64,000 nucleotides of DNA from positions 32,001 to 96,000 of IMG/VR virus record IMGVR_UViG_3300042564_002458; one strand, written 5' to 3'. The notes beneath the pieces are model-generated. The model made no database searches. It saw only the letters and a list, made by a program, of their open reading frames with translations, and was not told the origin of the DNA. Numbering within the stretch: position 1 is the first letter of the stretch; each line of letters opens with the position of its first letter. The position numbers and the translations under genes were made by a program. The stretch is from a virus. Positions 11,155 to 62,160 of the stretch are shown here, piece by piece.

Positions 11155-14100
11155 TTAAATTAAATTAGCCCAAGCACCGTTTTCATAACCCTGAAATTTG
11201 TTAAGATCAGTATCATATAATATGTCACCATTGACGGCGGCAAGAGTATTTTTTTGTACTGTACTTAATTTTGGTAGTCTGAATACAGCCCCACCCGTAA
11301 CATTAACAACTGTGGTACCCTGTAGAGTAATACTAGTAGTAGATACGAATGTTGGTGTTCCAACTGTATTACTAACAATATTACCACTAATATTAACATT
11401 ACCAGCACTAATATTACCAGTTACATCCAGACTACTTAATGTACCAACTGATGTAATATTTGGTTGAGCATTTGTCGTAATAGTTCCAGAATAATAATTA
11501 GCAGTTACTAAATTACCTAAATTTGCATTTGAACCATTAACATTTCCATTTGATTGAATTGTGTTGGCAATTACTATATTGGGAATTAATAAATTACCAG
11601 TACTTCCAAAAGTAAATGTACTTAGTGCATTTGCAGTTGAAATTGTTATAATACTATATTCGGTTGGAAGATATGCACCACTGGATTGAGGTAATCCAAT
11701 TGCCGTCATTTCTGTTCTTCCACCAAAACTCCATCCAGAAATAGAATCAATCGTTGTCAGTCCATTTCCAGTATATCCGTAATAAGTTTGTTTATAAATA
11801 TCATCATTGATCTGAACAATATTAATATTACCGGAGTCTGTTCCTCTGGCTCTTGCTGTTCTTGTACTATATTGATTTGCTATATTACTATATGCGGCTT
11901 GATTAATTTGTCCAGGAACTGTTAAGAGACCAGTATCATCCAATTTCAAATCATATTCAAGACCAGCATTATTAGTAGAATATATTTTTACTATAGACGG
12001 AATATATGAAGAACCACTACTAGCAGATCCATTAGCGATAACATTAATACCACCACCTTCTTGGTATTGATTATATGAAGTGTAACCTAAACTTTGTATG
12101 TCCAGCATTACATCATTTGTTTGAATCTGCAATGGAGAAGTACTAGTTCCACGAGATTTTTTCATTTCAATACCAAATAAATTAGCATCATTTGATGATG
12201 TACTAATTGTTATTCCATTTGATTGAATTGTGTTGGCAATTACTGTATTGGGAATTAATAAATTACCAGTACTTCCAAAAGTAAATGTATTTAAGGCATT
12301 TGCAGTTGAAATTGTTGTAACAAGATATTCAGTTGGAAGATATGCACCACTGGATTGAGGTAATCCAATCACTTGCATTTCTGTTCTTCCACCAAAACTC
12401 CATCCAGAAATAGAATCAATCGTTGTCAGTCCATTTCCAGTATATCCGTAATAAGTTTGTTTATAAATATCATCATTTACTTGAACAATATTAATATTAC
12501 CGGGATCTGTTCCTCTGGCTCTCGATGTTCTTGTACTATATTGAGTTGCTATATTACTGTATGCGGCTTGATTAATTTGTCCAGGAATTGTTAAGAGAGC
12601 AGTATCATCCAAGATCAAATCATATTCAAGACCAGCATTATTAGTAGAATATATTTTTACTATAGATGGGATGTATGAAGACCCGCCACTGGCAGATCCA
12701 TTAGCAATAATATTAATACCACCACCTTCCTGGTATTGGTTATATGAAGTGTAACCTAAACTTTGTATATTTAATAGTGTATCATTTGTTTGAATCTGCA
12801 ATGGAGAAGTACTAGTTCCACGAGATTTTTTCATTTCAATACCAAATAAATTAGCGTCATTTGATGATGTACTAATTGTTATTCCATTTGATTGAATAGT
12901 ATTGGAAATTACTGTATTGGCAATTACTGTATTGGGAATTAATAAATTACCAGTACTTCCAAAGGTAAATGTATTTAACGCATTTGCAGTTGAAATTGTT
13001 GTAATAAGATATTCGGTTGGAAGATATGCACCACTGGATTGAGGTAATCCAATTATCTGCATTTCTGTTCTTCCACCAAAACTCCATCCAGAAATAGAAT
13101 CAATTGTCGTCAATCCATTTCCGGTATATCCGTAATAAGTTTGCTTATAAATATCATCATTGATCTGAACAATATTAATATTACCGGAGTCTGTTCCTCT
13201 GGCTCTCGATGTTCTTGCACTATATTGTGTTGATACATTACTATATGCTATTTGATTAATTTGTCCAGGAACTGTTAAGAGAGCAGTATTGTCCAAGATC
13301 AAATCATATTCAAGGCCAGTATTATTAGTAGAATATATTTTTACTATAGATGGAATATATGAAGACCCATTACTAGCAGATCCATTAGCGATAATATTAA
13401 TACCACCACCTTCCTGGTATTGGTTATATGAAGTATAACCTAAACTTTGTAAATTTAATAGTGTATCATTTGTTTGAATCTGTAATGGAGAAGCATTGGT
13501 ACCACGAGATTTTTTCATTTCAATACCAAATAAATTAGCGTCATTTGATGATGTACTAATTTTTATTCCGGTATTACTATTTGGTGTAGTAACATTAATA
13601 CTATTAATATTTCCAATATTTGCGGTAATTTGATTTACTGTAACATTACTTGGTAAATCAACTGTTATATTTCCACTAGTGATGATAGGACTTCCTGTGA
13701 TTGTGAGATTATTACTTAATACTCCAACTCTAGTTACAGTCCCTCCCCCATTGCCACCACCGCCAGTCGCGCTTATAGTAACGGCACCATTTGATTGATT
13801 TATAGATACTCCACTACCGGCAACAATACTAGTTACTCCAGTATTGGTTATCGCTATTGTTCCGCTGGTTGTAATTGGACTTCCGCTTACTGATAACCCA
13901 GTTCCACCTGTTACGGCAATACTAGTAACAGTTCCACTACCGCTACCACTTGATGCACTAATTATTCTACCAAATTGATCTACTACTATATTAGCACTAG
14001 AATATGACCCTGATACTGATGGACTAATAGTGGGTAAATTAACATTAATATTTCCACTACTGATTATTGGACTATTAGTCACTGATAAAGTATTACTAGT

Positions 14101-14439
14101 AACACCAACACTATTTACCGAACCTCCGCCATTACCTGTTCCAGTACTATTAATTACTAATGTACCGTTACTACTTGGCGCGCCCCCGAGTGTCGTAATT
14201 GTTACATTTTCACCTGCTATTAGATTAGTTACACCAATATTAGTAATAACAAACGTTGAAGAATCACTATTACTAATAGCGATTCCATTACCTGGTAACA
14301 ATGTCTGAACTTGACCGGCGGTTTCGAATAATTCAGTAAAATTGTTTTGTATAGTGTTAAACGCTGTATACAAACTATCTGAGTTTGCTGAGTCGTTTGG
14401 TTGACCAATATTGATTAGTTGTTGACCTGGTATTGTCAT
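11155..14439 (-). CDS. tail fibre / baseplate-associated structural protein with 3 internal repeats
   Basis: N-terminal INIG..ND...DSL..AF..IN.NF.EL (T4 gp9/gp10-like), G/S/T/N-rich, C-terminal GDILYDTDLNKFQGY. Confidence 0.8.
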   Translation of the reverse strand: MTIPGQQLINIGQPNDSANSDSLYTAFNTIQNNFTELFETAGQVQTLLPGNGIAISNSDSSTFVITNIGVTNLIAGENVTITTLGGAPSSNGTLVINSTGTGNGGGSVNSVGVTSNTLSVTNSPIISSGNINVNLPTISPSVSGSYSSANIVVDQFGRIISASSGSGSGTVTSIAVTGGTGLSVSGSPITTSGTIAITNTGVTSIVAGSGVSINQSNGAVTISATGGGGNGGGTVTRVGVLSNNLTITGSPIITSGNITVDLPSNVTVNQITANIGNINSINVTTPNSNTGIKISTSSNDANLFGIEMKKSRGTNASPLQIQTNDTLLNLQSLGYTSYNQYQEGGGINIIANGSASNGSSYIPSIVKIYSTNNTGLEYDLILDNTALLTVPGQINQIAYSNVSTQYSARTSRARGTDSGNINIVQINDDIYKQTYYGYTGNGLTTIDSISGWSFGGRTEMQIIGLPQSSGAYLPTEYLITTISTANALNTFTFGSTGNLLIPNTVIANTVISNTIQSNGITISTSSNDANLFGIEMKKSRGTSTSPLQIQTNDTLLNIQSLGYTSYNQYQEGGGINIIANGSASGGSSYIPSIVKIYSTNNAGLEYDLILDDTALLTIPGQINQAAYSNIATQYSTRTSRARGTDPGNINIVQVNDDIYKQTYYGYTGNGLTTIDSISGWSFGGRTEMQVIGLPQSSGAYLPTEYLVTTISTANALNTFTFGSTGNLLIPNTVIANTIQSNGITISTSSNDANLFGIEMKKSRGTSTSPLQIQTNDVMLDIQSLGYTSYNQYQEGGGINVIANGSASSGSSYIPSIVKIYSTNNAGLEYDLKLDDTGLLTVPGQINQAAYSNIANQYSTRTARARGTDSGNINIVQINDDIYKQTYYGYTGNGLTTIDSISGWSFGGRTEMTAIGLPQSSGAYLPTEYSIITISTANALSTFTFGSTGNLLIPNIVIANTIQSNGNVNGSNANLGNLVTANYYSGTITTNAQPNITSVGTLSSLDVTGNISAGNVNISGNIVSNTVGTPTFVSTTSITLQGTTVVNVTGGAVFRLPKLSTVQKNTLAAVNGDILYDTDLNKFQGYENGAWANLI
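11546..13560 (-). repeat. three tandem ~670-bp intragenic repeats
   Basis: ISTSSNDANLFGIEMKKSRGT...NTIQSNG x3; periods 684 and 669 nt. Confidence 0.95.
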
Positions 14440-14494
14440 TGTTATTTTCCTCTATCTTATATTTATCTAATTTGATAGAGAAAATCAATGACAA

Positions 14495-14821
14495 TCAATA
14501 GGGATTAAATGAACTTCCGCATCCACATGTGGTTTGAGCATTGGGATTAGATATAACAAAATTACTACCCATATCGTCTTCACAAAAATCTATAGACGCT
14601 CCTTGAAGATATTGCATACTGGCACTATCTACTAATAAATTGATATCATCTGATTTAATTATAAAATCATCATCACTAATATCTTCATCTATTGTGAATC
14701 CATATGACATACCGCTACATCCACCACCTTTAACAAATACTCTGAGTTTAGCATTTGAGTTATTTTCATCAATTATGATGTCTTTAATACGATTGGTGGC
14801 TGATTCTGTTATTGTTATCAT
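14495..14821 (-). CDS. erpA: A-type Fe-S carrier ErpA/IscA (HesB family)
   Basis: GGGCSG, LLVDSASMQYL, NPNAQTTCGCGSSF. Confidence 0.9.
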   Translation of the reverse strand: MITITESATNRIKDIIIDENNSNAKLRVFVKGGGCSGMSYGFTIDEDISDDDFIIKSDDINLLVDSASMQYLQGASIDFCEDDMGSNFVISNPNAQTTCGCGSSFNPY

Positions 14822-14837
14822 TTATTTTGTCCATAAT

Positions 14838-14858
14838 AAAAGGGCATAACGCCCTTTG
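14838..14858. terminator. stem-loop after infA
   Basis: AAAGGGC-ATAAC-GCCCTTT; U-tract on minus strand. Confidence 0.6.
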
Positions 14859-14864
14859 ATGTAT

Positions 14865-15080
14865 TTATCTACGTCTTGTTATTCTACCTCTTGTTAGATC
14901 GTAGGGTGAGAATTCCACCTCAACTGTATCTCCCAAGAGTATTTTAATGCCATTCTGACGCATTTTGCCAGAAATCACACCAATTATAATTTTTTCGTTT
15001 GGTAGTTTAACTCTAAACATAGCATTTGGAAGTAATTCCAGTACTATGCCATCTATCTTAATTCCGTCTTCTTTGGCCAT
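14865..15080 (-). CDS. infA: translation initiation factor IF-1
   Basis: [42 protein letters not shown]. Confidence 0.95.
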
Positions 15081-15095
15081 ATAGTTTATTTAGTG

Positions 15096-15488
15096 CTACC
15101 CTCTCCGCATTTTAGAAATATCTACTGCTTCCTCATCTGAGAAAACAGGTACAGCATTACTCTTATGTAATACACCAATTCCAATCATTTTGTCACCTGT
15201 ATATATTGGAATATCTGTCTTAACTGCAGTTCCAACACCAGTACTTAATGATGGAAGATCAAGTAAACTTTGACCACGAAATACTCGTTTAGTTATTGTC
15301 AATGGTTTGACAATAAGTCCAGATTTTCGTTTCTTTTCATCCAATTCCGCACCATAAGATTTCTTTAGTACTTGCCAATCTTGTTCCAATTGTTCTGCCT
15401 GTCGTTTATGTTCAGCCGAAGCATACTTGAATTTGGCTCGTTTTTTGCCAGTAGTAGTAAATGCCGGACTCATCATGTGCATTGTCAT
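15096..15488 (-). CDS. conserved T4-like hypothetical protein
   Basis: YTGDKMIGIGVLHKSNAVPVFS...ISKMRR; sigma70 promoter 15518-15546. Confidence 0.75.
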   Translation of the reverse strand: MTMHMMSPAFTTTGKKRAKFKYASAEHKRQAEQLEQDWQVLKKSYGAELDEKKRKSGLIVKPLTITKRVFRGQSLLDLPSLSTGVGTAVKTDIPIYTGDKMIGIGVLHKSNAVPVFSDEEAVDISKMRRG

Positions 15489-15551
15489 ATAGTTACCATT
15501 ATAGTAGATTATAGTACATTATATCACAAATCAGATTTATTGTCAAGTTTA

Positions 15552-15938
15552 TTATCGTTTAAGAATACGTATTATTTCTTCTTTTTCCAAAATATCTTTC
15601 TCTAATTTCAGATATTGGCGTCTAAGTTCTCTTAATGTTTCCCAGCGTTCTTCTAATTCTGTATTTGGTTTAAAAATTGACAATTTATCTTTTATTTCTT
15701 CTAATAAATCTTTTATACTTTCGCCCTGTATTTTTAGATCACCCTCTATGATTACGTCACCCTCTATGATTACGTCACCAGTAGCATGAATAGAACTATG
15801 TTTATTATTGGATGGGAACGTATTTGATGATGAGATTGTTCCAGTTTGCCAACTTTGATCAGATGCGGTCAACGTAATAGTTTGAATAGTTTCATCATCT
15901 GATGATAGTGATACTGTAGAAATTGATTGATCAGACAT
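15552..15938 (-). CDS. hypothetical protein
   Basis: GDVIIE tandem duplication; coiled C-terminus. Confidence 0.7.
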   Translation of the reverse strand: MSDQSISTVSLSSDDETIQTITLTASDQSWQTGTISSSNTFPSNNKHSSIHATGDVIIEGDVIIEGDLKIQGESIKDLLEEIKDKLSIFKPNTELEERWETLRELRRQYLKLEKDILEKEEIIRILKR

Positions 15939-16170: not shown

Positions 16171-16881
16171 TTATAGAGGATTTAACTCTGGATTCCAACC
16201 AGTATTAATTTTAATCTTATCATTTTTCTTACTACGAGATTCTAACTCTTTATATATTTCAATTGCTTGTTTTTTACTAATTGTTGGCAATTCTTCCCAT
16301 GATCTGATTTTAAATCCTAATTCTATCAATCCTTTGGTCAAATTACAAGAATCAGTTTTTGTAAAAAATCTCGGAGCATCTGAATCATTAATAGTTAATC
16401 CACTTCCATTTTTCAATCCAGTTCCACCATTAGTAATGTCGGACTTTGCCTCAGTAACAAACGGATTAGCAATTATAGCTTGTTCTATTGTTACAGAATC
16501 TTCTTTTTCAAAATCAAATAAATTTTTAATTATTTCTTTCGATCTCCATACTTCAATTACATCTACACTATTGTTGAAAGGATTATTAATTTTAATTCTC
16601 CATACAATATTTCCCAGATGTCCTTGATTAATAATCAATGCGTTATGTGGAATCCAATACTTTTCTAAATTGACAGAAGATTTTCTAACATTAGATTTTA
16701 TTCCATCATGATTAGAATGATAATTCTCTAAAAAATTATCATCTTGATCTTTTTTTATCCATAGATATCTAATTGCCCATGGACCCAATTCATCAGGAAT
16801 AAACAACGGTATAGATTCTTCCAATATATCAGGCAATAATCCATTATATCCCGATACTGATTTTTTATCTTTATTAAACAT
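16171..16881 (-). CDS. hypothetical protein
   Basis: 236-aa ORF after late-type motif. Confidence 0.65.
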   Translation of the reverse strand: MFNKDKKSVSGYNGLLPDILEESIPLFIPDELGPWAIRYLWIKKDQDDNFLENYHSNHDGIKSNVRKSSVNLEKYWIPHNALIINQGHLGNIVWRIKINNPFNNSVDVIEVWRSKEIIKNLFDFEKEDSVTIEQAIIANPFVTEAKSDITNGGTGLKNGSGLTINDSDAPRFFTKTDSCNLTKGLIELGFKIRSWEELPTISKKQAIEIYKELESRSKKNDKIKINTGWNPELNPL

Positions 16882-16935
16882 GAATATATTTATTCAGAAT
16901 GATTAATGAAAATATTAATCACATTTGGATAACAA

Positions 16936-19026
16936 TTATCTGAAATTCTGTGCAACGTCAATTGGTACGTCTGGAATTGATTGACTACGTTGAGATGTGA
17001 CATTAGCAAGTTCTTGATCATCCGCTCTCTGTAACAAAAAGTCCTGACGAGGTATTCCCTGTGAAGTAGCCCATTGTCTAGCTTTTTCCATAGCATCTCT
17101 CACATCTGTGGCTGAGAATCTATACGCCACATTGCCCGCGCCGACCACACCCGCTCGTCTGCGCATTATATATTCTTGTGAACTTGCATTGTTTCCTCTA
17201 ACGGGTTCAGAGACAGGTTGTTCTTCATAGGGTCTTATTGGGCGAGCAATCATACCACGTTGATCTCTTATCCCCCATTCAAGTGCGGCTTTATTTTTGG
17301 CTTCTGGTTCACCAGTAGCTACTAATTCCATACTGTGGTTTCCAAGTGTTACATTCCACCACATTTTTTTATCAACATATTTGTTTTTTTCAACTTCTCT
17401 CTTGAATTGAACCTGTTTTAAATAATCTTTAAGTGTGGATACTGGCATTACTCCAGAGGAATATTGACTGAATAGTTGAATAATAGTTTGATCTTCTGGC
17501 ATAGCATCAGCAAATAATTTGTACAACTTTTTGGCATATTCTTCGCGTTCTAATTTTGGATTGCTGGCAATTGTAGTGGCATAAGCATATCTCAATAAAG
17601 TATTTTGTATTTTACTCATGTCTTCAAAATAATTCATACCACCAGCAGAACGAAATTCTATATATTTTTCTTTAGGATTAATACTTGTATATTTTCCAAA
17701 CCCACTAGGTTTAGCTAAACTATTACTTGCCAGTTGTGACAAATGATTACGCATTTGATTAAATGATGCCGTAATATCTATACCTTTGGCAGAACTTTTA
17801 ATCTTACTAATGGCACTTTTACAATAAGTATTAGCTGCACGATCAAATGATTGTAATACATATTCATCGCCCAAGAACAATGCAAGTTTAGTGAAATCAA
17901 TATTATCTGATGCATGATCAGGAAGACTTACTGACATATGAAACCCAGTTGATTCATTGGCATAAGCACCGTTATCTTCAGCCCACTTAAAAAACTTTGG
18001 TAACATTTCTATTGTTTCTGGTAATGGCATTGGTGGGCTAACAATTTCTACTGGCATATCTTCATCTTGATTTGCAGTCAAACTAGAATCAGGTTCAAAA
18101 ATCCATGTTGTATCATCTCTTCTAGCACTATGATAACCACTACTGACTATTGTATCAACATCTAAATCTTGTTCTAATGAGGAGGCTAAACTTTCAGCAT
18201 AGTCTTTATTAAACTCGCCATCACCGCTAAGACCTTCATTCTGATCATACATATGAGGCCATATAAGATCATAACGACCTTCTACATCTTGAGCAGAGTT
18301 AATACCTTGAGAACGTAACCATTCAGTTTCATCATAATCGGATTCCTCATTAGCCGTATCTAAAAAATTTTCGTATGCACTATCCCAATCATCATTATGA
18401 TCATTTATTGCTTCTTCTACACGATGATCTAATTGATCAGTGATTCCATCACTAGCGTTAATATAGTTATCAAAGTTTTTATTTTTTTTTCTAATTTCTG
18501 CTTGTTGTTTACTACTTTCTATTTTTCTTGACCACATTTGTCCAGCAGTCAGTGCGCTCTCAACTTCCCTATCACTGAGCTCCATTTCATCTCTCAAATA
18601 TTCTTCAATCTTAGAATCAAAATCCCAATCATCACCTTCAATCCAATCTTTTATTAATTCTTCTGCCTTATCAATAAAATCACTCATTAATTGTTCATCA
18701 CGCCATTCAAGATATTCGTTTAACATTTCTTCACGTATACGTTCTGATTGTCTTGGACCAAGATCAGAAAAATCACCACCTTGATAAAAATTTATGATAT
18801 CATCAATGTTATCAACACGTTCATCCGCATCATAATTATAATCATATTCTGGTTCATAATCATCACGAGATTCATTTCCTCCACTAAAGATTAATTCAGA
18901 TTCAAAACCGGCTTTCATACTTTGAGCTAATGGACTTTTAAGAAATTTTTGAAGATCACTAGAACCCATTCTTACTTCATCAAGTTCTTGATTTTCTAAT
19001 AATGATTTTATTTCTTGATATCTCAT
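16936..19026 (-). CDS. putative COOH-NH2 amidoligase-domain protein
   Basis: GFESE, EPDSSL, EIVSP, NESTGFHMSV, KYTSIN, IEFRSAGG. Confidence 0.75.
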   Translation of the reverse strand: MRYQEIKSLLENQELDEVRMGSSDLQKFLKSPLAQSMKAGFESELIFSGGNESRDDYEPEYDYNYDADERVDNIDDIINFYQGGDFSDLGPRQSERIREEMLNEYLEWRDEQLMSDFIDKAEELIKDWIEGDDWDFDSKIEEYLRDEMELSDREVESALTAGQMWSRKIESSKQQAEIRKKNKNFDNYINASDGITDQLDHRVEEAINDHNDDWDSAYENFLDTANEESDYDETEWLRSQGINSAQDVEGRYDLIWPHMYDQNEGLSGDGEFNKDYAESLASSLEQDLDVDTIVSSGYHSARRDDTTWIFEPDSSLTANQDEDMPVEIVSPPMPLPETIEMLPKFFKWAEDNGAYANESTGFHMSVSLPDHASDNIDFTKLALFLGDEYVLQSFDRAANTYCKSAISKIKSSAKGIDITASFNQMRNHLSQLASNSLAKPSGFGKYTSINPKEKYIEFRSAGGMNYFEDMSKIQNTLLRYAYATTIASNPKLEREEYAKKLYKLFADAMPEDQTIIQLFSQYSSGVMPVSTLKDYLKQVQFKREVEKNKYVDKKMWWNVTLGNHSMELVATGEPEAKNKAALEWGIRDQRGMIARPIRPYEEQPVSEPVRGNNASSQEYIMRRRAGVVGAGNVAYRFSATDVRDAMEKARQWATSQGIPRQDFLLQRADDQELANVTSQRSQSIPDVPIDVAQNFR

Positions 19027-19030
19027 GATA

Positions 19031-19351
19031 TTATTTTGTTGATCTTTGTCTTTTTACTTCAGTAACAGTTTCTAATATTGCCAATTTTACTTCTTGTTCA
19101 TGTAATTTATCGTGAATGTCGTTGACTGTACTTTCTATTTTATTTAATCTTTCTTCTAATATATCAGTTTTCTGTTGAATATGTTCTAACATATTGGTCT
19201 GATTATCATGTTGTAATAACGCCTGATCTAATCCACTTGTAACTTTAGCAAACCAATGTTTACCTTGCCACCAGGCTCCACCCATGCCGAATACAAACAC
19301 AAGTATAATCCAGTCTTCTTGAATAGTTTTAATAATATCTAATAAATTCAT
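19031..19351 (-). CDS. membrane-anchored coiled-coil protein
   Basis: single TM then heptad repeats. Confidence 0.65.
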   Translation of the reverse strand: MNLLDIIKTIQEDWIILVFVFGMGGAWWQGKHWFAKVTSGLDQALLQHDNQTNMLEHIQQKTDILEERLNKIESTVNDIHDKLHEQEVKLAILETVTEVKRQRSTK

Positions 19352-19752
19352 CTTTCGTATCCTTTGAAACCTTGTATTGGACTATTAGTATCTACTTCAG
19401 ACATTTCTTCACTTTTTTTAGTACTAATCAACTTTTTGTCTGAAGATTTAAGACCAACGATATTAAGAGCATAGTCTATGATATCAGTATCTAAATCATA
19501 AGCTATAATAATTTCATTTTCACCCCATGCACTAGATGGAGCCATAGATGCGCCGCCAGAATCTGATAGTCTTTGTTCTGCGCTACGTGCACCCGCAATG
19601 GCTACTCCAAATCTATATTGTTTGTAGAAATCACTGTTTGGTAATGCGGGAATTGAATATGTGGATGGTAATGATCTTGAAACACTACTACTCAATCTAG
19701 TGTCACTGACTGGCATAGTACTGTTCTCAATTATGAATTCTTTTGCTCTCAT
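19348..19752 (-). CDS. hypothetical protein, paralogue of 19749-20132
   Basis: MRAKEF...SEEMSEV..SPIQGFKGYER. Confidence 0.8.
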   Translation of the reverse strand: MRAKEFIIENSTMPVSDTRLSSSVSRSLPSTYSIPALPNSDFYKQYRFGVAIAGARSAEQRLSDSGGASMAPSSAWGENEIIIAYDLDTDIIDYALNIVGLKSSDKKLISTKKSEEMSEVDTNSPIQGFKGYER

Positions 19753-20132
19753 CTTTCATATCCTTTGAAACTTTGAACTGGACTAACTCTATTGACTTCT
19801 GGCATTTCTTCGCTGTTCATGTCACCACTATTTAAATCTTTATATTGTAATCCGGCAGCTTTATATGCCAATTTAAGCATATTCTCTTCTTCTTTAGTGT
19901 AAGCATGTGCAGTATTATGTTTGCCAACCCAACTTTCAGCATCCATTTCTATTGGGTTTATACCATCACTAGATGCAACTGCCATCATTAAACGATTTAA
20001 ATCATATAGTTTATCGTAAGCGTCTATTTTCTTTGTAAAAATATGTAATCCACGAGTTGATTGCTGATTTCCGGGAGAAATTTTGGAAGCCGCTTCGATT
20101 ATCGTAGTAGGAACGAATTCTTTTGCTCTCAT
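19749..20132 (-). CDS. hypothetical protein, paralogue of 19348-19752
   Basis: MRAKEF...SEEMPEV..SPVQSFKGYER. Confidence 0.8.
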   Translation of the reverse strand: MRAKEFVPTTIIEAASKISPGNQQSTRGLHIFTKKIDAYDKLYDLNRLMMAVASSDGINPIEMDAESWVGKHNTAHAYTKEEENMLKLAYKAAGLQYKDLNSGDMNSEEMPEVNRVSPVQSFKGYER

Positions 20133-20134
20133 TA

Positions 20135-20344
20135 TTATTTTTCCAATTTACTAATACGGGGTTTAAATAATTTTTGATCACCTTTAGTAGTTTTTAACAC
20201 TGGTTGATTATGATCATCAGTACTGAATCCAGTTACTTCTGTCTTACGATTCTTGAATTTACCAACTTTAATCTCATCACCAACATTGATAGTAGGTGGT
20301 GTATATGTCTTGGAACTTTCTTGTATGATTTCGTTAATGTTCAT
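20135..20344 (-). CDS. small KOW/SH3-like protein
   Basis: start MNINEII via TAATG coupling; INVGDEIKVGKFKN. Confidence 0.7.
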   Translation of the reverse strand: MNINEIIQESSKTYTPPTINVGDEIKVGKFKNRKTEVTGFSTDDHNQPVLKTTKGDQKLFKPRISKLEK

Positions 20345-22233
20345 TAGCAGTTCCATTTACGTAGTGCTAATGCTTTACGAGTAGGTTTACCATCTTTTTT
20401 CATTGGTCCCTTGACCCCTGACATTCTGGCACAAAAACTCTTACGTCTTTTAGCAGCCTTACTTCCAGGCTTTAATTTACTTGGTTTAGTAGTCACTGCA
20501 GTTTGCAGTTTACTACCAGGATGTTCACGACGATAACTGTTAACACCCTTTTGATTGAGCCCACCAGTCTTGTTCTTACCTGATTTTTTCTGCCATGCAG
20601 CTACTTCATCTAACTTGTTTAATTCTTCTTGTAACCAATTTGATTCGTCTACTTGTGGATCAATACCTTGCTCTTCTTGACTTTTTAAATAATCCCATGA
20701 AGAAACAATCATACCTTCTACATTAGCAATTTTCTCTTGTACCCATTCTGGTAAATTTTCATTGTCATCAATAGTATCTAATAAACCTTCGGCTGCACGT
20801 ATAATAGTATGTAAATTAGTATGAGCCATGCCTGATTCATCATCATACTCAGCGTTATTTTCCATAATTCCAGCTGAACTAACACCTACCGCAACGCTCG
20901 CCAATCCAGTTTTAATGGCATCTGACCAACTCATACCGTGTAGTTTTGCGGCCAGTGTTGGTATTACTGAATTCATTGAACCTTGAAGTATCATGTTAAA
21001 TTGTTGTGGTGACAGACCCATGCTACCAAAATGTTTGATAACTGCACCTGATACTATACTACCAACGATAGTTATAATAACACCTTGTAGATAGGGATTT
21101 TTTGATCCTGCTTTCAACATTGTTAATACTTTGGCACGTTGTTTTCCTGTGGCTTGTGATAATAATTCTTTTGCTTTAGAATTATAATTCTCAACTTTTC
21201 CTGGTTTACTTTGTGACAATTGAGTTTTGTAGAAGTCAGTAATGACACTAGTGACATTTGATTTAGATTCACTACTGCCTTCCGCCACACCTTCTTTTGG
21301 CACACAGTTAGGAACTTTCTTACCGTTTTTCTTCTTCATGCCAACTTGCTTATAGTTATCCCAACATGGGTCTGAGTCTTCCGACACCGCTTGCTCTGCC
21401 AAATCACTATCATCATAATATTGTAGCGCATCCGATACACGATTAATAAGTTCTCTTTCAAGTTTTTGCATGAGAGCATCCGATGCTTTGATTTTTAACT
21501 TTTTAAGAGCGTCCAAAATGTCGTCATCTATATCCCAATGAACATTATTAGATAAAAGTATTCTCTCTACTGCGCTATACACTTGTTCAAACTTAGAGTT
21601 GGCAGATGGTTTCGCAACATCAGCAGCATTTTTAGTGATATTGTTCATCATGCTACCGTATGCTGTATCAGCACGTTGATCGGCTGCGGCACCTTTGTAT
21701 CTAGCACCTTTAACTATCTTTCCCATCATTGAATCAAATGATGTGTCGCCAGTTGTCTCCGCCACACCTTGCTGACCTTTAAGTGCTTGTAATAACGCTC
21801 TAGCAACTACACGATCTTTTTCTTGTTCTTCATCAGGCAATTGAGCATACCCAATGTTCATCAACTTTTCTCGTTGTTGAAGTTTTGCTTCTAATTTTCC
21901 AGCCGCTTTTAACTTTTCTGTATCATCAAATTGATCAGGATTTTGTACAAATGCTTTAGCCGTTACATTCCAACCTTTATGAATAGCATCACTGATTGCT
22001 TCAATATCAGTAATACCTTTATCAATCATTTGTTTAGCATATGCAGCTGATTTTAAATTTGCTTGCCATCCAAATGTATTACCAGGAGAACTACGACCAT
22101 AATGATATGCATTATCTAATGCTTCGTCACTGATAGTGGCCAGTTGTTGTACGCTTAATTGTTTTTGATCACCTTCCGCCACACCTTGAGCGTTCAAGAT
22201 AGTATTTTCTGAGAGAATTTGAGTTATTTTCAT
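20344..22233 (-). CDS. multi-module protein, putative processed internal head polyprotein
   Basis: modules separated by GVAE/AVSE; RyR-like module, PCWDNYKQVGMKKK..PNCV module, basic C-terminal AWQKKSGKN..RRKSFCARM module. Confidence 0.75.
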   Translation of the reverse strand: MKITQILSENTILNAQGVAEGDQKQLSVQQLATISDEALDNAYHYGRSSPGNTFGWQANLKSAAYAKQMIDKGITDIEAISDAIHKGWNVTAKAFVQNPDQFDDTEKLKAAGKLEAKLQQREKLMNIGYAQLPDEEQEKDRVVARALLQALKGQQGVAETTGDTSFDSMMGKIVKGARYKGAAADQRADTAYGSMMNNITKNAADVAKPSANSKFEQVYSAVERILLSNNVHWDIDDDILDALKKLKIKASDALMQKLERELINRVSDALQYYDDSDLAEQAVSEDSDPCWDNYKQVGMKKKNGKKVPNCVPKEGVAEGSSESKSNVTSVITDFYKTQLSQSKPGKVENYNSKAKELLSQATGKQRAKVLTMLKAGSKNPYLQGVIITIVGSIVSGAVIKHFGSMGLSPQQFNMILQGSMNSVIPTLAAKLHGMSWSDAIKTGLASVAVGVSSAGIMENNAEYDDESGMAHTNLHTIIRAAEGLLDTIDDNENLPEWVQEKIANVEGMIVSSWDYLKSQEEQGIDPQVDESNWLQEELNKLDEVAAWQKKSGKNKTGGLNQKGVNSYRREHPGSKLQTAVTTKPSKLKPGSKAAKRRKSFCARMSGVKGPMKKDGKPTRKALALRKWNC

Positions 22234-22322
22234 GTTATGTAACCAATATTACTTGTATTTATCAATAACAAATTATATTATAAATTCAAAATGTTACTTT
22301 ATTTTTATATCATATTCAATCT

Positions 22323-22390
22323 GATAAATAAATGTTACAGATGCCGATTGGGTCTGTAAATTTAACTTGCTTAATTAAGGAGATAATATC
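22323..22390 (+). promoter_or_regulatory. late promoter + ROSE-like leader of dnaK
   Basis: GATAAATA 22323-22330; hairpin 22335-22359; CTTGCTT-AATT-AAGGAG SD-sequestering stem. Confidence 0.65.
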
Positions 22391-24253
22391 ATGAGCAAAA
22401 ATGTTGTCATAGGCGTAGATTTGGGCACCACTAATAGTTGTGTATCCATTGTTGAAAACGGAAAATACAAAATCATTGAAAATAGCGAGGGTGGAAGAAC
22501 AACACCTAGTATTGTAGCATATTCGAACGATGAAATTCTAGTTGGCGCATCAGCCAAGAGACAATCCGTAACTAATCCCATAAATACAATTTATGCTGCC
22601 AAACGACTAATTGGTCGTAAATTCAAAGAACAGGCGGTTCAGAAAGACATTGACTTGATGCCATATAAAATCATTGAGTCAAAGAATGGCGATGCATGGG
22701 TATATGCCGCAGATAAAGAATTAGCACCACCTCAAATTAGTGCAGAAGTTCTTCGTAAAATGAAGAAGACTGCCGAAGATTATCTTGGTCATGAAGTCAC
22801 TCAGGCAGTTATAACAGTACCAGCCTACTTTAATGATAGTCAACGTCAAGCAACTAAAGATGCTGGTAAAATAGCTGGGCTTGAAGTTCTTCGTATTATC
22901 AATGAACCAACTGCTGCAGCGTTAGCATACGGTGTTGATAAACAAGATAAAAAAGATCGTAAAATTGCAGTATATGACTTGGGTGGTGGAACGTTTGATG
23001 TTTCAATTATAGAAATAGCCAATGTTGATGGAGATAAGCAAATTGAAGTTTTATCGACCAACGGAGATACATTCTTGGGCGGTGAAGATTTTGATCAACG
23101 ATTGATGGATTATTTAGTAGACGAATTCAAAAAAGATAGTGGAGTTGATCTTAAAAATGATATGTTGGCACTACAGAGATTAAAAGATTCTGCAGAACGA
23201 GCAAAGATTGAATTGTCAAGTTCACAACAAACTGCGGTTAATTTACCATATATTACCGCTGATAGTTCTGGCCCACGACACATGAATATTATTATTACTC
23301 GTTCTAAGTTGGAATCATTAGTAGAAGACTTAATCAAGCGTAGTATTGAACCATGTAAAATTGCTCTAAAAGATGCGGGAATGTCAACAAGTGACATAGA
23401 CGAGATAATTCTTGTTGGGGGGCAAACTCGTATGCCAAAAGTACAAGAGGCCGTAGAGAAATTATTTGGTAAAATTCCACGAAAAGATATTAATCCAGAT
23501 GAGGCTGTAGCCGCGGGCGCCGCAATTCAGGGTGCAGTATTATCAGGTGATCGCAATGATGTTCTATTACTTGATGTGACTCCACTATCACTTGGTATTG
23601 AAACAATGGGTGGTGTAATGACTAAATTAGTTCAAAAGAATACAACTATTCCAACCAAGGCAAGTCAAATATTCTCTACAGCAGAAGATAATCAATCGGC
23701 CGTTACTGTAAAAGTATTTCAGGGTGAACGTGAATTAGTTCAATACAATAAGTCATTAGGTGAGTTTAATTTGGAAGGAATTCCACCATCTCGTCGAGGT
23801 ATTCCACAAATTGAAGTTACATTTGATATTGACGCAAACGGAATCATGCATATCAAAGCTAGCGACAAAGGTACTGGTAAAGAAAATAAAATTACCATTA
23901 AATCAAATAGTGGATTGAGCGAAAGTGAAATTCAACAAATGGTTCAAGAAGCAGAAGACAATGCCGATTCTGATAAAAAGATGAAAGATTTAATTCTTAC
24001 AAGAAATCATGCTGAGTCAGTAATTCATGAATGTACAACAGATTTAAAAGATTTCGGAAATCAATTAAGTCAAGAAGAAAAAACTTCAATTGAATCTGTC
24101 ATTGAATCTATTAAAACTGTCATGACAGGTGAAGATAGTGAGTTGATTACTAGTGAAATAACAAAACTATATGAAGTTTCCAAACCGCTTAATGAGAAGA
24201 AAATGAAAAAACAGTCATCAGATGAATTAGATGATACTGTGGTAGATGTCTAA
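22391..24253 (+). CDS. dnaK: chaperone DnaK (Hsp70)
   Basis: [49 protein letters not shown]. Confidence 0.98.
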
Positions 24254-24273
24254 TTTACAGAATCTAAGTAAAT

Positions 24274-24309
24274 AAAAATATCCACGATTAATCGTGGATA
24301 TTTTTTATT
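24274..24309. terminator. bidirectional intrinsic terminator
   Basis: AAAAATATCCACGAT-TA-ATCGTGGATATTTTT between convergent dnaK and yccA. Confidence 0.85.
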
Positions 24310-24321
24310 GATAATTATTAA

Positions 24322-24993
24322 TCAGTCTTTCTTAATACCAAATAATTGTAATAGATTTAAGAATAAGTTAATAAAGTCCAAATATAATCTAAGTGCCCCA
24401 ACCACCTCGGCGTTACCATCAGTACTTATACTTAATTGTTCACGAATATTTTGTGTATCATAAGCAGTTAATCCCAAAAAGATTATAATGGCAATTGCAG
24501 AAATAACCATGGTCATTACTGTACTTCCAATAAAGATATTGATAATACTAGCAATAACAATAGCAATCAATCCAATAAACATAAATTGACCCATGGTTTC
24601 AAGACTTCGTTTTGTAAAATAACCATAAAAACTCATAGTACCAAACAAAACAGCAGCACCCATAAATGCCGATGTAATACTACCAATAGTATAAATTACA
24701 AAGATTGTGGCAAAACTCAATCCCATTAAGGCAGCAAATACATGTAACATCAATGTGGCAGCTACTTTTCCAACTTTATCAATAGTAAATGAAACTAGTA
24801 ATACAACAACCAATGGTGCAAAAATTACAACCCATTTAAGTGGCGTTCCAAAAATAGTTGCCATTAACTGGGTATTGGTACTAACAAGATAACCAACAAT
24901 CATTGAGTTTAATACAGCTAAACACATATGATTGTAAACACGAATCATACTATCATTCAATTCACTAACACTACGGTAAGATAAACTACTCAT
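24322..24993 (-). CDS. Bax inhibitor-1/YccA family membrane protein
   Basis: 7 TMs, AYDTQ, LYLDFINLFL. Confidence 0.92.
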   Translation of the reverse strand: MSSLSYRSVSELNDSMIRVYNHMCLAVLNSMIVGYLVSTNTQLMATIFGTPLKWVVIFAPLVVVLLVSFTIDKVGKVAATLMLHVFAALMGLSFATIFVIYTIGSITSAFMGAAVLFGTMSFYGYFTKRSLETMGQFMFIGLIAIVIASIINIFIGSTVMTMVISAIAIIIFLGLTAYDTQNIREQLSISTDGNAEVVGALRLYLDFINLFLNLLQLFGIKKD

Positions 24994-31761: not shown

Positions 31762-32003
31762 GACCATCTCAATAAAAATAAAAGTGCTGATTTCTCATCT
31801 GGTATACTCACAGTAACATGTAAGGTCGTTCCGACACTATTTGTTCTAGTTCCATGACCTCTCCATATATAGTCAATATTGTGTTCTTTCAACCAGTTAC
31901 ATATCTGATTCATAAAGATAGATGCATCACCATACTTACTACGATCTCCGTATACTGTACGGTCTGTATCAGGTCTCTGTAACTCACCAACATAATAAGT
32001 CAT
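31758..32003 (-). CDS. KW-terminal array protein 6
   Basis: NWLKEH..IPDEKSALLFLLRWS. Confidence 0.8.
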   Translation of the reverse strand: MTYYVGELQRPDTDRTVYGDRSKYGDASIFMNQICNWLKEHNIDYIWRGHGTRTNSVGTTLHVTVSIPDEKSALLFLLRWS

Positions 32004-53165: not shown

Positions 53166-53717
53166 TTATTGAATTGTAATAACTACTCTTCTATCTGGTG
53201 ACAAACAAGATTTAAATTTCTCAAAGTTTTTCATACCAGTACAAAGTGCAGTATCAGAAGTTGGCTGTGTAGAACCAACACCACTGACAACAAATTTGGA
53301 TTTAAATCCAGTTTTGGAGTTCAGATAATCAGCAACAGCCTGAGCACGTTGTTGACTTAACTTTTGATTATAAGATGATGTACCAATACGATCAGTATGA
53401 CCAATTATAGTCACGATTGAGGTAGTAGTAATACTTTTAATAATCGGATTCAATACTTCACGACCTTTTACAGTCAATGCAGATGAATCGAATTCAAATA
53501 AAACATCACCGTTCAAAGTCATTGGTGTACGTTTTACTTCAGCAACTGGATCACAACCTTTTACTGCGTTAGTAGGAACATAAGTTCCTGTATGCAGACA
53601 AAGACCACTTCCAGTTTGTACAATCTTACCGCTACTATCCGTTACATAACCCTCTGCTGCCATACCGACAGACCAGATGGTTAAGTAGGATAACATGATT
53701 ACTAATAATGCTTTCAT
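53166..53717 (-). CDS. ompA: OmpA-family protein (betaproteobacterial type)
   Basis: VLFEFD, GHTDRIG..YNQKLS..RA, DRRV; N-terminal GLC..G motif. Confidence 0.88.
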   Translation of the reverse strand: MKALLVIMLSYLTIWSVGMAAEGYVTDSSGKIVQTGSGLCLHTGTYVPTNAVKGCDPVAEVKRTPMTLNGDVLFEFDSSALTVKGREVLNPIIKSITTTSIVTIIGHTDRIGTSSYNQKLSQQRAQAVADYLNSKTGFKSKFVVSGVGSTQPTSDTALCTGMKNFEKFKSCLSPDRRVVITIQ

Positions 53718-53732
53718 TGTTATCCTTTGTGA

Positions 53733-54872
53733 TTAGAATTGATGACGTAGACCAACACCAACTACAGTGCTTTTCGCGGTATCAACAGTAGCATAGTTTA
53801 CACTTTGACCAACATAGGCATACGCATTTGTACGCTTAGTGAAGTCATATGTATAACCCAAGTTGTATGAGCTTTGATTCTGAGCATTGTAAGCATCTTT
53901 CATGTTGGTGTTAGGGGCAATCATTGTCCATGACACTAACACACGCGATACAGCGTTCACAGGAACAGTAGCGCCAACGATGTAGCTGTTGTAGCCAACA
54001 CCGGGTGCGAACACCAAGGCGTTTGTGTTACCGTTAGGTCCAACTGCCAATTGTGCACCAGTACCACCAGCACCTGAACCAGCCCAGAAGCCGTCACGAG
54101 TCTGTCCATAACCTGCCATTAATTTTACTACTTTCAAATCATAAGAAGCACCCAAGCTCCAGTTGTTAACTGACTGACCATTCTGAACTGATGATTCAGA
54201 GGCATAAGCTTTGTCATAAGATACAGCTGCATAAACTGGACCATTGGCGTATTTTAAACCAGCGGTAATTTGGCGTGAGTTGTCGCTTGTAGCAAAACCA
54301 TAGCCAGTTGTACCACCATTAGAAGCCAATCCTGTAGCAAACGAATATCCCAAACCGGCTTGAACACCGCTCATAACAGGTGAACGATACATTAATGTAT
54401 TGTCTAGACGTAGTGTATTACCAGATGTAAAGGCATGACCCATGTTCAATTGACCGAATCCTGCCGAGAATGGATCTAAGTTTCCGACTAGCCAATCACT
54501 TGCCAAGTTTGTCATACGACCTAAGCGAACATCGCCCCAGGCACTATTTTGTAATCCAAACCAAGCTTGACGACCAAACATACGACCACTTTGTTGACTT
54601 GTGCCATTACCAAGATCAAATCCGTTTTCCAATTGGAAAATAGCCGAATTGCCGTTACCCATGTCCTCAACGCCCTTGAGACCGAATCGGTTTCCTGACT
54701 GAACGCCATAAGCACCACCAAAGTTGCTAACGCCCTCGCCATTGGCAAGACTGACTGATTGATAGCGTAGACCACCATCGATGAGACCATATAATGTTAC
54801 AGAACTTTGTGCCTGAGCAGCTGTTCCAACGGCCAATGCAGCAGCCAATACTGATAGTTTATAAAATTTCAA
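53733..54872 (-). CDS. Gram-negative general porin (Burkholderiales/Neisseria type)
   Basis: AQSSVTLYGLIDGG, RFGLKGVEDMG, FGRQAWFGL, KRTNAY, C-terminal GLRHQF; TTG start after AGGAG. Confidence 0.92.
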   Translation of the reverse strand: MKFYKLSVLAAALAVGTAAQAQSSVTLYGLIDGGLRYQSVSLANGEGVSNFGGAYGVQSGNRFGLKGVEDMGNGNSAIFQLENGFDLGNGTSQQSGRMFGRQAWFGLQNSAWGDVRLGRMTNLASDWLVGNLDPFSAGFGQLNMGHAFTSGNTLRLDNTLMYRSPVMSGVQAGLGYSFATGLASNGGTTGYGFATSDNSRQITAGLKYANGPVYAAVSYDKAYASESSVQNGQSVNNWSLGASYDLKVVKLMAGYGQTRDGFWAGSGAGGTGAQLAVGPNGNTNALVFAPGVGYNSYIVGATVPVNAVSRVLVSWTMIAPNTNMKDAYNAQNQSSYNLGYTYDFTKRTNAYAYVGQSVNYATVDTAKSTVVGVGLRHQF

Positions 54873-54984
54873 TTTACTTCTCCTTAATGTTTTCAAAAAC
54901 AATATACATTATCACATATAATGTAATATAATACAAGTTTTTTGGTATAATGACTAGTATTTAGTTATTATAATTGAGATTAAA

Positions 54985-60105: not shown

Positions 60106-62160
60106 TTACTTGCTTGTTGCCCTATATGTTCCGTCCCAATCTCTTGGTAAATTGGACATTTTCATTTCATAACATCTTTTTTTCCAAATAGTATAATATT
60201 CATTCATTTGTCCATCAAATTCACCCATTAAACTATCACATAAAAATATAGCGTGTTCAAATTCTTGTTTACGATATGCAACTAACATTTCTTCATGATC
60301 TTTACGACCAATTTCATATTCACCATGAGCACCTGGATATAATTCTAATACAGTATAAATCGTAACTCCTAATGTCTTACCTTTAACTGCGATACAATCT
60401 AACTCTAATACAAAATAATCATCTTTTACATATTCAGCAGTTTTTGGACCAAGTACGATTTTGACGCCGTACGGTTTACTCTGGCCTTCCAATCTTGAAG
60501 CCAAATTGACGCCATCACCAAGACAAGTATAGTCAAAACGCTGATCACTTCCCATGTTACCAACCACAACGGTGTCAGTATTAATGCCAAGACCCATACC
60601 AAAAGCCGGTACACCTTCTGCTGTAACTTCTTTATTAAATTCATCTAAACTTCCCATCATTTCTAAACCTGTTTTGACAGCTAACTTGGCATGATCCACA
60701 TTGTTAATAGGTGCATTCCAAAATGCCATCTGAGCATCACCAATATATTTGTCTAATGTACCATTGTTTTCTAATATTTTCTTTGTCATAGCAGTCATAT
60801 AACGATTCATAATCTTAGTTAAACCTTGTACATCACGACCATAATGTTCACTAATAGCGGTAAATCCACGAACATCAGTAAACATAATTGTAAGCTCTTG
60901 TTCATCTCCACCTAGTCTTAATAATTCTGGTTGTCTTTGTAATTTGGCTACTAAATCAGGTGATAGATAACTACCAAATTGTTTCTTGATTTGTTGTTTC
61001 TGTAAGAATTCACTTACAAACTTAATTCCATAAGCATGAAGAAGAACCAGAATAAGACCAACAACGATGATAGTGCTATCCAAAAGCCAATGATACATAT
61101 CATACAAATACATGCTACCATAAATAGTACCGCCGAGAAAAATAATGCTAGTGATAATCCCAACATAAATCCACCTTGTTAAAAATAGTAATAATAAACC
61201 TAATATTAATAATACTAAAATCTCTAACCCATCAGCATAATATGGACGTTCAATATTAACTTGATTAACTAATGTACCAATAACTGCAGCTTGTACATAA
61301 TGTGGGAACTGAGCACCAATTGCAGTAGGTACTGGATTACTTATTCCGGCGGCAGTTGGTCCAATAATAACAATAGCATCATCTAATTTTTCTGGTAAAT
61401 TTAATAAATTTACACTTTGTGGAGTTTGACTCCAATCAATCCATATACGTCCAAAATTGTCAGTAGTAATCGGACCAAATTTTGGTATACGCATTTTTTC
61501 TACACCCAATTCATTTAATTTAACTTGAAATGTAGTATCATCTGATGCTACACGTAATACTTCCATGGCTAAACTTGGATATAGTTTATCATCTACTGTA
61601 ATTATCAATGGTAAACGACGATTAACACCATCAATTTCCGGCAAGGTATTAACTGTACCTATACCCGCCGCAGCATTTTCTAATATAGATACATTGGAAA
61701 TAATACCAGAATATTTAATGATACGATCTAAATATTCTGTATTCAATACGGCTGATCCTGGATTTCTTGGTGTGTTTTTAGTTTTTTGTGATGGCACATT
61801 AACCAATACAACTGGGAATTCTGTCAATGTTTTAGATAATTTAGTATCACCATTTTGTCTATCTTTTTCTGACATTAATACATTTAGTACTACTAGACCA
61901 GCGCCACGTTTGTATAAGTCACGTATGATATCTGAGTATATAGCTCGATCAAGTGGCCATTGACCATATTTCTCTAGAGTATCTTCATCAATATTGACTG
62001 TGTAAATGTTTAATGATTTTGTAGGTTGACTGGTGATTAGTTGATCAAAATATCTGAGACGAACTGATTCTACAAATGAATAATCAGCAACACGTATACC
62101 AACAATCAGTGCTAGTGTTAGTAATGCTGTCCATGGTGATAGTATAATACGTTTAATCAT
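60106..62160 (-). CDS. CHASE2-domain class III adenylate/guanylate cyclase
   Basis: IDE..GQWP (CHASE2), DG..RR, 3 TMs, FTDVRGFT, DKYIGDA, GIGIN-like GLGINTD, GD.VNLASRLE, VKGK. Confidence 0.93.
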   Translation of the reverse strand: MIKRIILSPWTALLTLALIVGIRVADYSFVESVRLRYFDQLITSQPTKSLNIYTVNIDEDTLEKYGQWPLDRAIYSDIIRDLYKRGAGLVVLNVLMSEKDRQNGDTKLSKTLTEFPVVLVNVPSQKTKNTPRNPGSAVLNTEYLDRIIKYSGIISNVSILENAAAGIGTVNTLPEIDGVNRRLPLIITVDDKLYPSLAMEVLRVASDDTTFQVKLNELGVEKMRIPKFGPITTDNFGRIWIDWSQTPQSVNLLNLPEKLDDAIVIIGPTAAGISNPVPTAIGAQFPHYVQAAVIGTLVNQVNIERPYYADGLEILVLLILGLLLLFLTRWIYVGIITSIIFLGGTIYGSMYLYDMYHWLLDSTIIVVGLILVLLHAYGIKFVSEFLQKQQIKKQFGSYLSPDLVAKLQRQPELLRLGGDEQELTIMFTDVRGFTAISEHYGRDVQGLTKIMNRYMTAMTKKILENNGTLDKYIGDAQMAFWNAPINNVDHAKLAVKTGLEMMGSLDEFNKEVTAEGVPAFGMGLGINTDTVVVGNMGSDQRFDYTCLGDGVNLASRLEGQSKPYGVKIVLGPKTAEYVKDDYFVLELDCIAVKGKTLGVTIYTVLELYPGAHGEYEIGRKDHEEMLVAYRKQEFEHAIFLCDSLMGEFDGQMNEYYTIWKKRCYEMKMSNLPRDWDGTYRATSK

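Follow-up and report, generated by a model that had tools for sequence, protein, structure and literature searches.

In phage T4, a capsid-targeting sequence (CTS) of 10 residues directs proteins into the prohead and is cleaved off by the protease gp21 (cuts after L/I-x-E), as stated in the passages of PMC9026906 that deal with it. The internal proteins (IPs) of T-even phages are characterized in the corresponding part of PMC3012670 as diverse, with "only a conserved CTS" in common; those of T4 start with MKTYQEFIAE (IPII and IPIII) or MKTFKEFTSTTTPVSTITE (IPI). Polyvalent proteins (Iyer et al. 2017) combine 2–15 unrelated domains in one phage polypeptide and, according to the relevant passages of PMC5512222, are predicted to be packaged, delivered and processed into units by an in-built metallopeptidase (MPTase) domain. 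On the DNA level, recombination has been described at conserved motifs in the gp38 and gp37 adhesins and at the PeSL cassettes of T4-type phages (sections of PMC3157838 and PMC2839356). Here we analyse a viral DNA stretch of 64,000 nucleotides (positions 32,001 to 96,000 of the IMG/VR record IMGVR_UViG_3300042564_002458; "the window"), in which a minus-strand gene (20344..22233) encodes a protein of 629 amino acids built from modules chained behind a leader and joined by a recurrent linker. In our best explanation, to which we assign a probability of roughly 0.6, the product is a modular polyprotein whose linker acts at both the DNA and the protein level, and its gene belongs to a T4-type freshwater jumbo phage with a genome of ~340–370 kb. 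Related viral loci are labelled L, large related records G (the window's own record being G000) and homologous proteins P.

The gene, taken from the list of open reading frames (ORFs), has 748 homologous proteins of mosaic architecture, and all of its parts lie on the minus strand. It starts with the 9-residue leader MKITQILSE (22207..22233), which ends with L-S-E, resembles the T4 CTS and is found in exactly this form in 18 of 120 homologues. The leader is followed by linker 1 (CAAGGTGTGGCGGAAGG, encoding QGVAEG, aa 16–21, 22172..22188), module 1 (aa 21–159, 21757..22173), linker 2 (CAAGGTGTGGCGGAGAC, QGVAET, aa 155–160, 21755..21770), module 2 (aa 160–285, 21379..21756), a degenerate linker (CAAGCGGTGTCGGAAG, QAVSED, 21377..21393), the mini-module PCWDNYKQVGMKKKNGKKVPNCV (module 3, aa 286–318, 21280..21378) and linker 3 (AAGGTGTGGCGGAAGG, EGVAEG, aa 314–319, 21278..21293). 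Linkers 1–3 are each defined by an exact 13-mer, by a repeat family and by the edges of homology blocks. Module 4 (aa 319–455, 20869..21279) contains one strongly hydrophobic segment (aa ~380–404, 21022–21096; Kyte-Doolittle window up to 1.93) and ends in the degenerate junction AGIME. Module 5, the LPEWVQEKI module (aa 456–540, 20614..20868), is also encountered in other polyproteins after GVAE or GVTE linkers, GVAE standing there where the query has GIME. The chain is terminated by the basic module DUF6321 (PF19846, aa 552–627, 20353..20580), with 25 K/R and 4 D/E among the last 89 residues of the polyprotein.

The initial annotation had described the segments between the linkers as unrelated to one another, and none of the six indeed resembles another. 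A Pfam scan of the segments assigned a family only to the C-terminal one (DUF6321, 71.4 bits at a gathering cut-off of 28.5; 76.5 bits for the module alone). Module 2, earlier annotated as helical, produced exclusively sub-threshold Pfam matches and no family. Module 3 is represented in PHROG (phrog_9737, 36547 and 22379), and its blastn matches belong to cyanomyoviruses and the Methylophilales phage Melnitz. The proposed similarity of module 1 to RyR domains was not confirmed: Pfam gave no match to PF02026 at E values up to 5, and the other leads are weak (PDB phmmer E 0.77 over 25 residues of an RyR1 repeat chimera; ESM-Atlas matches to RyR clusters with feature scores of 0.85 and 0.84, short of the 0.9 from which a match counts as more than a lead). 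The module is possibly RyR-like.

Compared to the known systems, the locus shares with the T4 IPs a short leader of the same pattern ending with aliphatic-x-Glu (MKTYQEFIAE in T4; MKITQILSE here and MRAKEFIIE next door), diverse cargo behind a conserved leader, and capsid and protease genes of T4 type in its relatives. However, T4 IPs are single small proteins with one cargo per leader, whereas here up to six or more cargos per leader are chained by a repeated internal site conserved as DNA. As in gp38 and the PeSL cassettes, a short conserved sequence flanks variable (there hypervariable) segments and the exchange points fall within or near it; the gp38 motifs, as presented in the cited sections, are part of one folded domain in fixed order and the PeSLs are intergenic promoter-terminator cassettes moving whole genes, in contrast to a 17-nt joint between independent domains of free order and number, placed in frame in at least 150 contexts. 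Polyvalent proteins are approached by the six unrelated segments in one polypeptide, by weak ParB_N modules in relatives and by an HD/SpoT-like module (judged by eye) in one polyprotein of G002. Yet a Pfam scan of 54 relatives, which returned DUF6321 (23), sub-threshold ParB_N (3), CTP_transf_like (1), GP88 (1) or no family (28), revealed no peptidase domain and thus no counterpart of the in-built MPTase; the word "linker" is absent from the main text of PMC5512222, whose pertinent passages mention no conserved linker. The phiKZ-like giant phages likewise have many head-internal ejection or inner-body proteins, which a gp21 homologue cuts after Glu at S/A/G-x-E, but these are separate gene products with long propeptides instead of chains of shuffled modules, and the relevant passages of PMC9026906 and PMC5694885 report no nucleotide-level conservation of the sites. 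In the literature, as far as its searchable text and extracts extend, there was no relevant use of "GVAE" together with "phage", none for "DUF6321" and no description of such a linker. A module chain of free order combined with a universal linker, conserved as DNA in at least 150 contexts and probably containing a cleavage site, was not found described and is apparently new.

Conservation of the linker as DNA

The initial annotation rested on three exact copies of a 13-mer, a degenerate fourth copy and their common reading frame, all of which were recovered. The 13-mer AAGGTGTGGCGGA lies on the minus strand at 22175–22187, 21758–21770 and 21281–21293; further copies were absent from the window at up to two mismatches and from the 120,921-base record at up to one mismatch, ~0.0006 copies being expected in the record from base composition. 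A repeat search delineated a 16-nt family of four copies, identical at 21278–21293 and 22172–22187, with 81% identity at 21755–21770 and 75% at 21377–21392, the latter being the degenerate copy. All are in frame of the 629-aa ORF, in the contexts AQGVAEGD, QQGVAETT, KEGVAEGS and QAVSED. The codons GTG and GCG are, as claimed, atypical for the genome and account for 9.9% of Val and 7.9% of Ala codons, respectively, in 128 ORFs of the record. The repeat search detected neither a hairpin nor a palindrome or inverted repeat in the linker, and a known RNA element is ruled out by an Rfam scan of positions 19000–23000, which was empty at the linkers.

The assumption that the conservation is at the nucleotide level was borne out by a set of 80 related viral loci gathered by similarity to the polyprotein gene. 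Their ORFs with at least two motifs contain 68 non-redundant [GDS]V[ATS]E sites. GVAE is not encoded by varied synonymous codons: GGT GTG GCG is used at 41 of 47 non-redundant GVAE sites from 23 distinct ORFs (31 as GGTGTGGCGGAA, 10 as GGTGTGGCGGAG), compared to a share of 0.68% (0.0068) predicted by the codon usage of the same ORFs. The DVAE and SVAE sites mostly consist of GAT or AGT followed by GTGGCGGAA. Both replacements, G-to-D and G-to-S, are single-base changes of GGT; thus, the first codon switches its amino acid, and the synonymous positions that follow do not change. Perfect identity between linker pairs extends over a median of 15 nt (range 11–25, near-identical loci aside), with CAAGGTGTGGCGGAAGG as consensus. 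When this 17-mer was scanned in 2.9 million viral contigs, exact copies were found in at least 130 loci at a minimum of 157 distinct sites; among the matches listed, 147 sites are in an open QGVAEG frame, 150 downstream and 151 upstream 10-residue flanks are different, and 28 loci have multiple copies. Two synonymous 17-mers composed of the most frequent codons served as controls and are far rarer (33 and 10 loci with 27 and 9 distinct sites, of which 15 and 6 have an open frame; no multi-copy locus).

We regard it as improbable that the linker is a feature of the protein only, either a flexible linker or a protease site, whose DNA identity reflects recent descent or hitch-hiking with the modules. 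In module 1, compared over 11 distinct loci, 29 of the 32 four-fold degenerate sites at invariant residues vary; the modules beside the linker have diverged and the linker has not, and recency therefore fails to explain its identity. Moreover, the same 17-mer joins at least 150 different flanks and homology blocks end at it (see below), a divergence which mere descent without homogenization or selection would not survive. Selection at the protein level nevertheless exists by itself, as in some lineages the motif is written with other codons (SVAE as TCAGTCGCTGAA and DVAE as GATGTAGCAGAA, in L006 and L019) and the junctions DVTE and SVEE of a second polyprotein gene in the record consist of ordinary codons.

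A selection of the codons for translation, with the rare GTG-GCG or the Shine-Dalgarno-like AGGTG or GGAGG causing pausing at domain borders or internal initiation, could draw on the rarity of both codons and on the presence of AGGTG and GGAAGG in the 17-mer. This explanation is highly improbable, because GGT, the commonest Gly codon, is equally fixed (47 of 47 GVAE sites), the likewise rare GTC and GCC are unused, the 150 distinct downstream 10-mers among the matches listed leave no conserved start codon, and pausing would not account for the ends of homology blocks at the linker. Internal translation starts are ruled out, as the sequence after the linker differs at nearly every site. A general DNA signal such as a Chi-like hotspot, a packaging site or a promoter was also rejected: in 902 kb, all 47 non-redundant copies of the 11-mer GGTGTGGCGGA are in frame 0 of a long ORF, never on the other strand or intergenic, and complete relatives have only 0–3 copies, all within polyprotein genes.

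Probable module exchange at the linker

The module composition of the homologues is not constant. Proteins whose C-terminal halves are 92–99% identical to the query have quite different N-terminal parts, and P0002, P0003, P0004 and P0022 depart from the query exactly at the motif, as seen from ...NCVPKEGVAE/GSSESKS in the query, ...NCVPKKGVAE/GFLNEHG in P0004 and ...ESIEQDVAE/DSSESKS in P0003. Cutting 120 proteins at the motif yielded 573 segments in 203 similarity clusters, and 20 proteins with a common C-terminal block of 311 residues comprise 17 different module strings, in which modules are re-used in differing orders. Nucleotide alignments by blastn exhibit the same edges. L004 matches the query in the leader, as far as linker 1, and again in the whole remainder beginning with linker 3, the block of L005 ends at linker 3, and L006 and L007 match solely in module 1, from linker 1 to linker 2, where the blocks of L008, L009, L026 and L070 also end. 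Module 2 is present as an isolated block of 93% nucleotide identity in L019–L025, reaching from linker 2 to the degenerate copy, and L040 matches in module 3 only; the end of the former and the start of the latter are at most 7 nt from the degenerate linker. In four lake runs, contigs leave the reference at 21275/21276 and 21290/21296 (linker 3) and at 22163–22172 and 22188 (linker 1), with three different continuations at each of the two linkers. These contigs document the presence of junction variants, not their frequency, and chimeric assembly is an unlikely cause of the breaks because the identity tracts are presumably shorter than assembler word sizes.

The exchange is not confined to alleles. 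Modules 1–3 occur at 97% identity in a different polyprotein gene, in which both the leader and the C-terminal end are others (P0022, P0023), and the window's record contains a second, paralogous polyprotein gene at its positions 13550–15868 (plus strand, outside the window), which encodes 772 residues with the leader MKKLLDIMNE after an upstream Met and carries the query's modules 1–3 in other phages. Exchange therefore crosses paralogous loci. In G002 (L109, 7756–11570), two adjacent polyprotein genes have GVAE linkers, including a tandem GVAEGVAE, and a module of one G002 polyprotein appears by eye like an HD/SpoT-type hydrolase (HAGQTRAGGDPYITHPMRVADHI...LHDTVEDT).

The modules also behave as autonomous units. 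Module 1 exists as many free-standing genes of ~147 residues (573 short matches); those inspected have their own short leader ending with L-N-E or I-N-E (e.g. MSTEIFRKYIDLLNES...) and terminate with ...ARALLQAMQGS exactly where the linker of the polyprotein starts. DUF6321 is located internally or near the N-terminus in some polyproteins, and the cyanomyovirus proteins of Sf-FS3 and S-SCSM2R with a C-terminal DUF6321 are devoid of such linkers.

The suggestion of the initial annotation that the repeat is a recombination handle between swappable modules is thus well supported, as far as sequence comparisons can tell, by the breakpoints found at the linker in proteins, blastn blocks and lake contigs and by the 17 architectures among 20 close relatives. 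The 17-mer might alternatively be the recognition site of a dedicated enzyme, such as a site-specific recombinase or homing endonuclease, which moves cassettes as an integrase does at attC. The extreme constancy of a sequence that could in principle work independently of the frame, and its spread over many phages, would fit such an enzyme; T4-type phages are rich in homing endonucleases, and near the polyprotein gene there is a NUMOD3 gene in L019 and a TnsA-like endonuclease gene in L013. The linkage is, however, not consistent, with a recombinase or endonuclease gene in 2 of 10 loci (70 flanking ORFs) and none in the cluster of the window, and the 17-mer is neither palindromic nor an inverted repeat and never found outside a coding frame. 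We consider this possibility quite improbable and retain exchange by crossover or template switching at the linker.

Leader and putative packaging and cleavage

By pattern, MKITQILSE corresponds to a T4 CTS, i.e. a leader of 10–20 residues ending with L/I-x-E, a similarity captured by a regular expression formulated post hoc. The expression fits 9 of the 202 ORFs of the record, compared to 0.62 (at most 5) when the N-termini were shuffled 1000 times; five of these ORFs are contiguous with the polyprotein gene and three more lie beside the second one. The downstream run of five genes with T4-CTS-like leaders (16936..20356, minus strand), derived from the ORF list and the expression, encodes proteins of 73 residues (MNINEIIQE, from the second Met), 127 residues (MRAKEFVPTTIIE), 134 residues (MRAKEFIIE) and 106 residues (MNLLDIIKTIQE) and a 696-residue amidoligase (16936–19026; MRYQEIKSLLE; Amidoligase_2 in Pfam). 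Among the related loci, 104 of 717 distinct ORFs conform, 68 of them with a 9-mer of the type M-R-A-x-E-F-I-x-E, the next residue being A, S or T in 63. The leader M-R/K-A-x-E-F-I/L-x-E plus A/S/T accompanies polyprotein genes in L004–L083 and at 16310–19357 of G000, outside the window, on ORFs of 65 to 1129 residues; judged by these N-termini, they appear to form an extensive family of putative capsid-targeted proteins.

The junction after module 1 varies among GVAE, GMAE, DMAE, ELSE, GVTE, GVEE, GIAE, GLAE, GVVE and a few others, such that Glu is almost invariant, the residue two places earlier is aliphatic and the one between is free. Judged by its residues, the pattern is of T4 type, except that V or M substitutes for L or I. 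By gene content, the large related records in which the linker recurs are T4-type phages. Peptidase_S77, the gp21 family, was identified in three of five large records reached via protein similarity and in three of five reached via the exact 17-mer (6 of 10 over both sets), and Gp23 in four of five large related records; the capsid proteins of G001 and G009 contain L-A-E and L-L-E in short N-terminal regions. Capsid delivery and cleavage of the polyprotein appear plausible because of this circumstantial evidence, namely the T4-CTS-like leader, the aliphatic-x-Glu junctions and the T4-type capsid and protease genes of the relatives.

The protein might instead not be packaged at all and act inside the cell as a multi-domain protein, either intact or processed by a different protease (such as the phage ClpP or subtilase), with some other role for the leader. 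The chaperone and protease genes in the neighbourhood (DnaK, ClpXP, Hsp20), the lack of an evident late promoter and the absence of an adjacent structural gene in the window would agree with such a function. Against it, the leader and the leader-bearing cluster mirror the T4 CTS, and the polyprotein gene is found 2.6 kb from gp23 in L019 and next to a T4-type terminase gene in L008. Moreover, DUF6321 is encoded in the T7-like Pelagibacter phage HTVC119P as a free-standing 78-aa gene (gp28; L107, 2381–2617) between the scaffold and capsid genes, a position that hints at a head-internal role of the basic domain, and a DUF6321-bearing ORF of Synechococcus phage Sf-FS3 is called "structural protein", albeit by annotation only. 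We therefore judge an unpackaged protein rather unlikely and favour packaging.

On this basis we propose a first scenario. Small autonomous modules would be chained behind a T4-CTS-like leader and spaced by the linker (Q/K/E)-G-V-A-E-(G/A/D). At the DNA level, the linker offers a GC-rich island of ~15 nt (11–25 nt) of perfect identity between otherwise unrelated AT-rich sequences, at which crossovers or template switches would exchange, insert or delete whole modules with the frame kept, among alleles, paralogous polyprotein genes and different phages. At the protein level, the leader would carry the chain into the prohead, where the T4-type protease would cut after each aliphatic-x-Glu and release separate modules; these would remain beside the DNA inside the head and might pass into the host upon infection. 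DNA binding is conceivable for the basic DUF6321 end (25 K/R in 89 residues). That the modules are effectors is a guess. The conserved C-terminal half (hydrophobic segment, LPEW module and basic DUF6321) would form a fixed anchor with decayed junctions inside it (GIME, QGIDPQVDE) and the N-terminal part a hypervariable cassette region; lineages with drifted linkers would leave the exchange pool. Pristine linkers may mark variable junctions and decayed linkers fixed ones, an idea taken from GIME and QGIDPQVDE in the conserved C-terminal block; a comparison of junctions made to this end yielded no usable class of fixed ones.

Several points weigh against this scenario. With respect to exchange, an identity tract of ~15 nt is short by the standards of ordinary homologous recombination, and we infer the recombination role from where homology ends, not from crossovers directly seen. 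The synonymous controls numbered two, the 17-mer counts are lower bounds, and many linker sites in the 80 similarity-gathered loci may share descent. With respect to packaging and cleavage, the leader expression was written after the data had been seen and in its strict form fits 4 of 15 polyprotein ORFs in the related loci, the others having looser look-alikes, and the published T4 motif has L or I, not V, at P3. The window's own record, 34% complete, yielded neither Peptidase_S77 nor Gp23, and the S77 search gave no match in G002 and G008, two motif carriers of at least 97% completeness. Late expression is only presumed, as the gene contexts differ, with DNA polymerase, DnaK, capsid or terminase genes as neighbours (DNA polymerase in L026, L036 and G002), and the exact TATAAATA used in the late-promoter search is absent upstream of the polyprotein gene. 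A looser ATAAATA was discarded as late promoter, since it precedes 23 of 202 ORFs and is too common to be meaningful.

Source genome and biological meaning

The record of 120,921 bases has a G+C content of 33.8% and an estimated completeness of 34%, which implies a whole genome of ~350 kb. It encodes DnaK, two ClpP, ClpX, Hsp20, peptide deformylase, Fe-S assembly proteins, a porin, OmpA, DNA ligase and dCMP deaminase, as well as a subtilase whose matches are confined to T4-like cyanomyoviruses (42 of 42 records). G008–G010 are 68–74% identical to the ClpP-ClpX region of the window on the nucleotide level. All 24 runs listed with the polyprotein gene are lake-water metagenomes, with no RNA data set among them, and marine cyanophages and pelagiphages carry single modules of the polyprotein.

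The surroundings of the gene vary between close relatives. Comparison of 16936–24993 of the window with L004, the closest related locus, indicates that DnaK (22391–24253) and the 696-aa amidoligase are insertions or deletions, because L004 has a Bax1-I gene directly before the polyprotein gene and no amidoligase after the small leader-bearing genes. Rfam detected a ROSE_3 RNA-thermometer match at 22335–22396 (plus strand; 38.4 bits, below the gathering score of 43; E 1.6e-5) in the leader running into the start codon of this phage DnaK/Hsp70 gene, which by its sequence may be a heat-responsive 5′ untranslated region on a viral chaperone gene. Further away, the minus strand encodes a CHASE2 plus adenylate/guanylate cyclase protein of 684 residues (60106–62160; Pfam 137 and 68.6 bits; phrog_35576 790 bits) and, at 53166–54902, a Gram-negative porin (Porin_4, 114 bits) and an OmpA-family protein.

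It is conceivable, although we advance this only tentatively, that aquatic T4-type phages use the 17-nt in-frame linker, maintained as DNA, as a "standard joint" in hundreds of contexts and many lineages, by which any module can be inserted into any capsid-targeted polyprotein and which at the same time encodes the cleavage site for its release. Such a domain-level cassette system would allow a rapid combinatorial turnover of delivered proteins and might possibly involve a dedicated or phage-specific short-homology recombination activity. If the proposed scenario is true, phages would renew the proteins they carry into the host by swapping whole domains at a universal frame-keeping joint and not by point mutation, and the capsid-targeting principle of T4, with a single cargo behind each leader, would be extended to chains of cargos. 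The linker would then be a clear natural case of selection on synonymous sites that keeps a sequence recombinable. Hundreds of small autonomous modules with defined borders would become candidates for host take-over or anti-defence proteins, and their arrangement could provide a natural template for loading several foreign proteins into T4-type heads.

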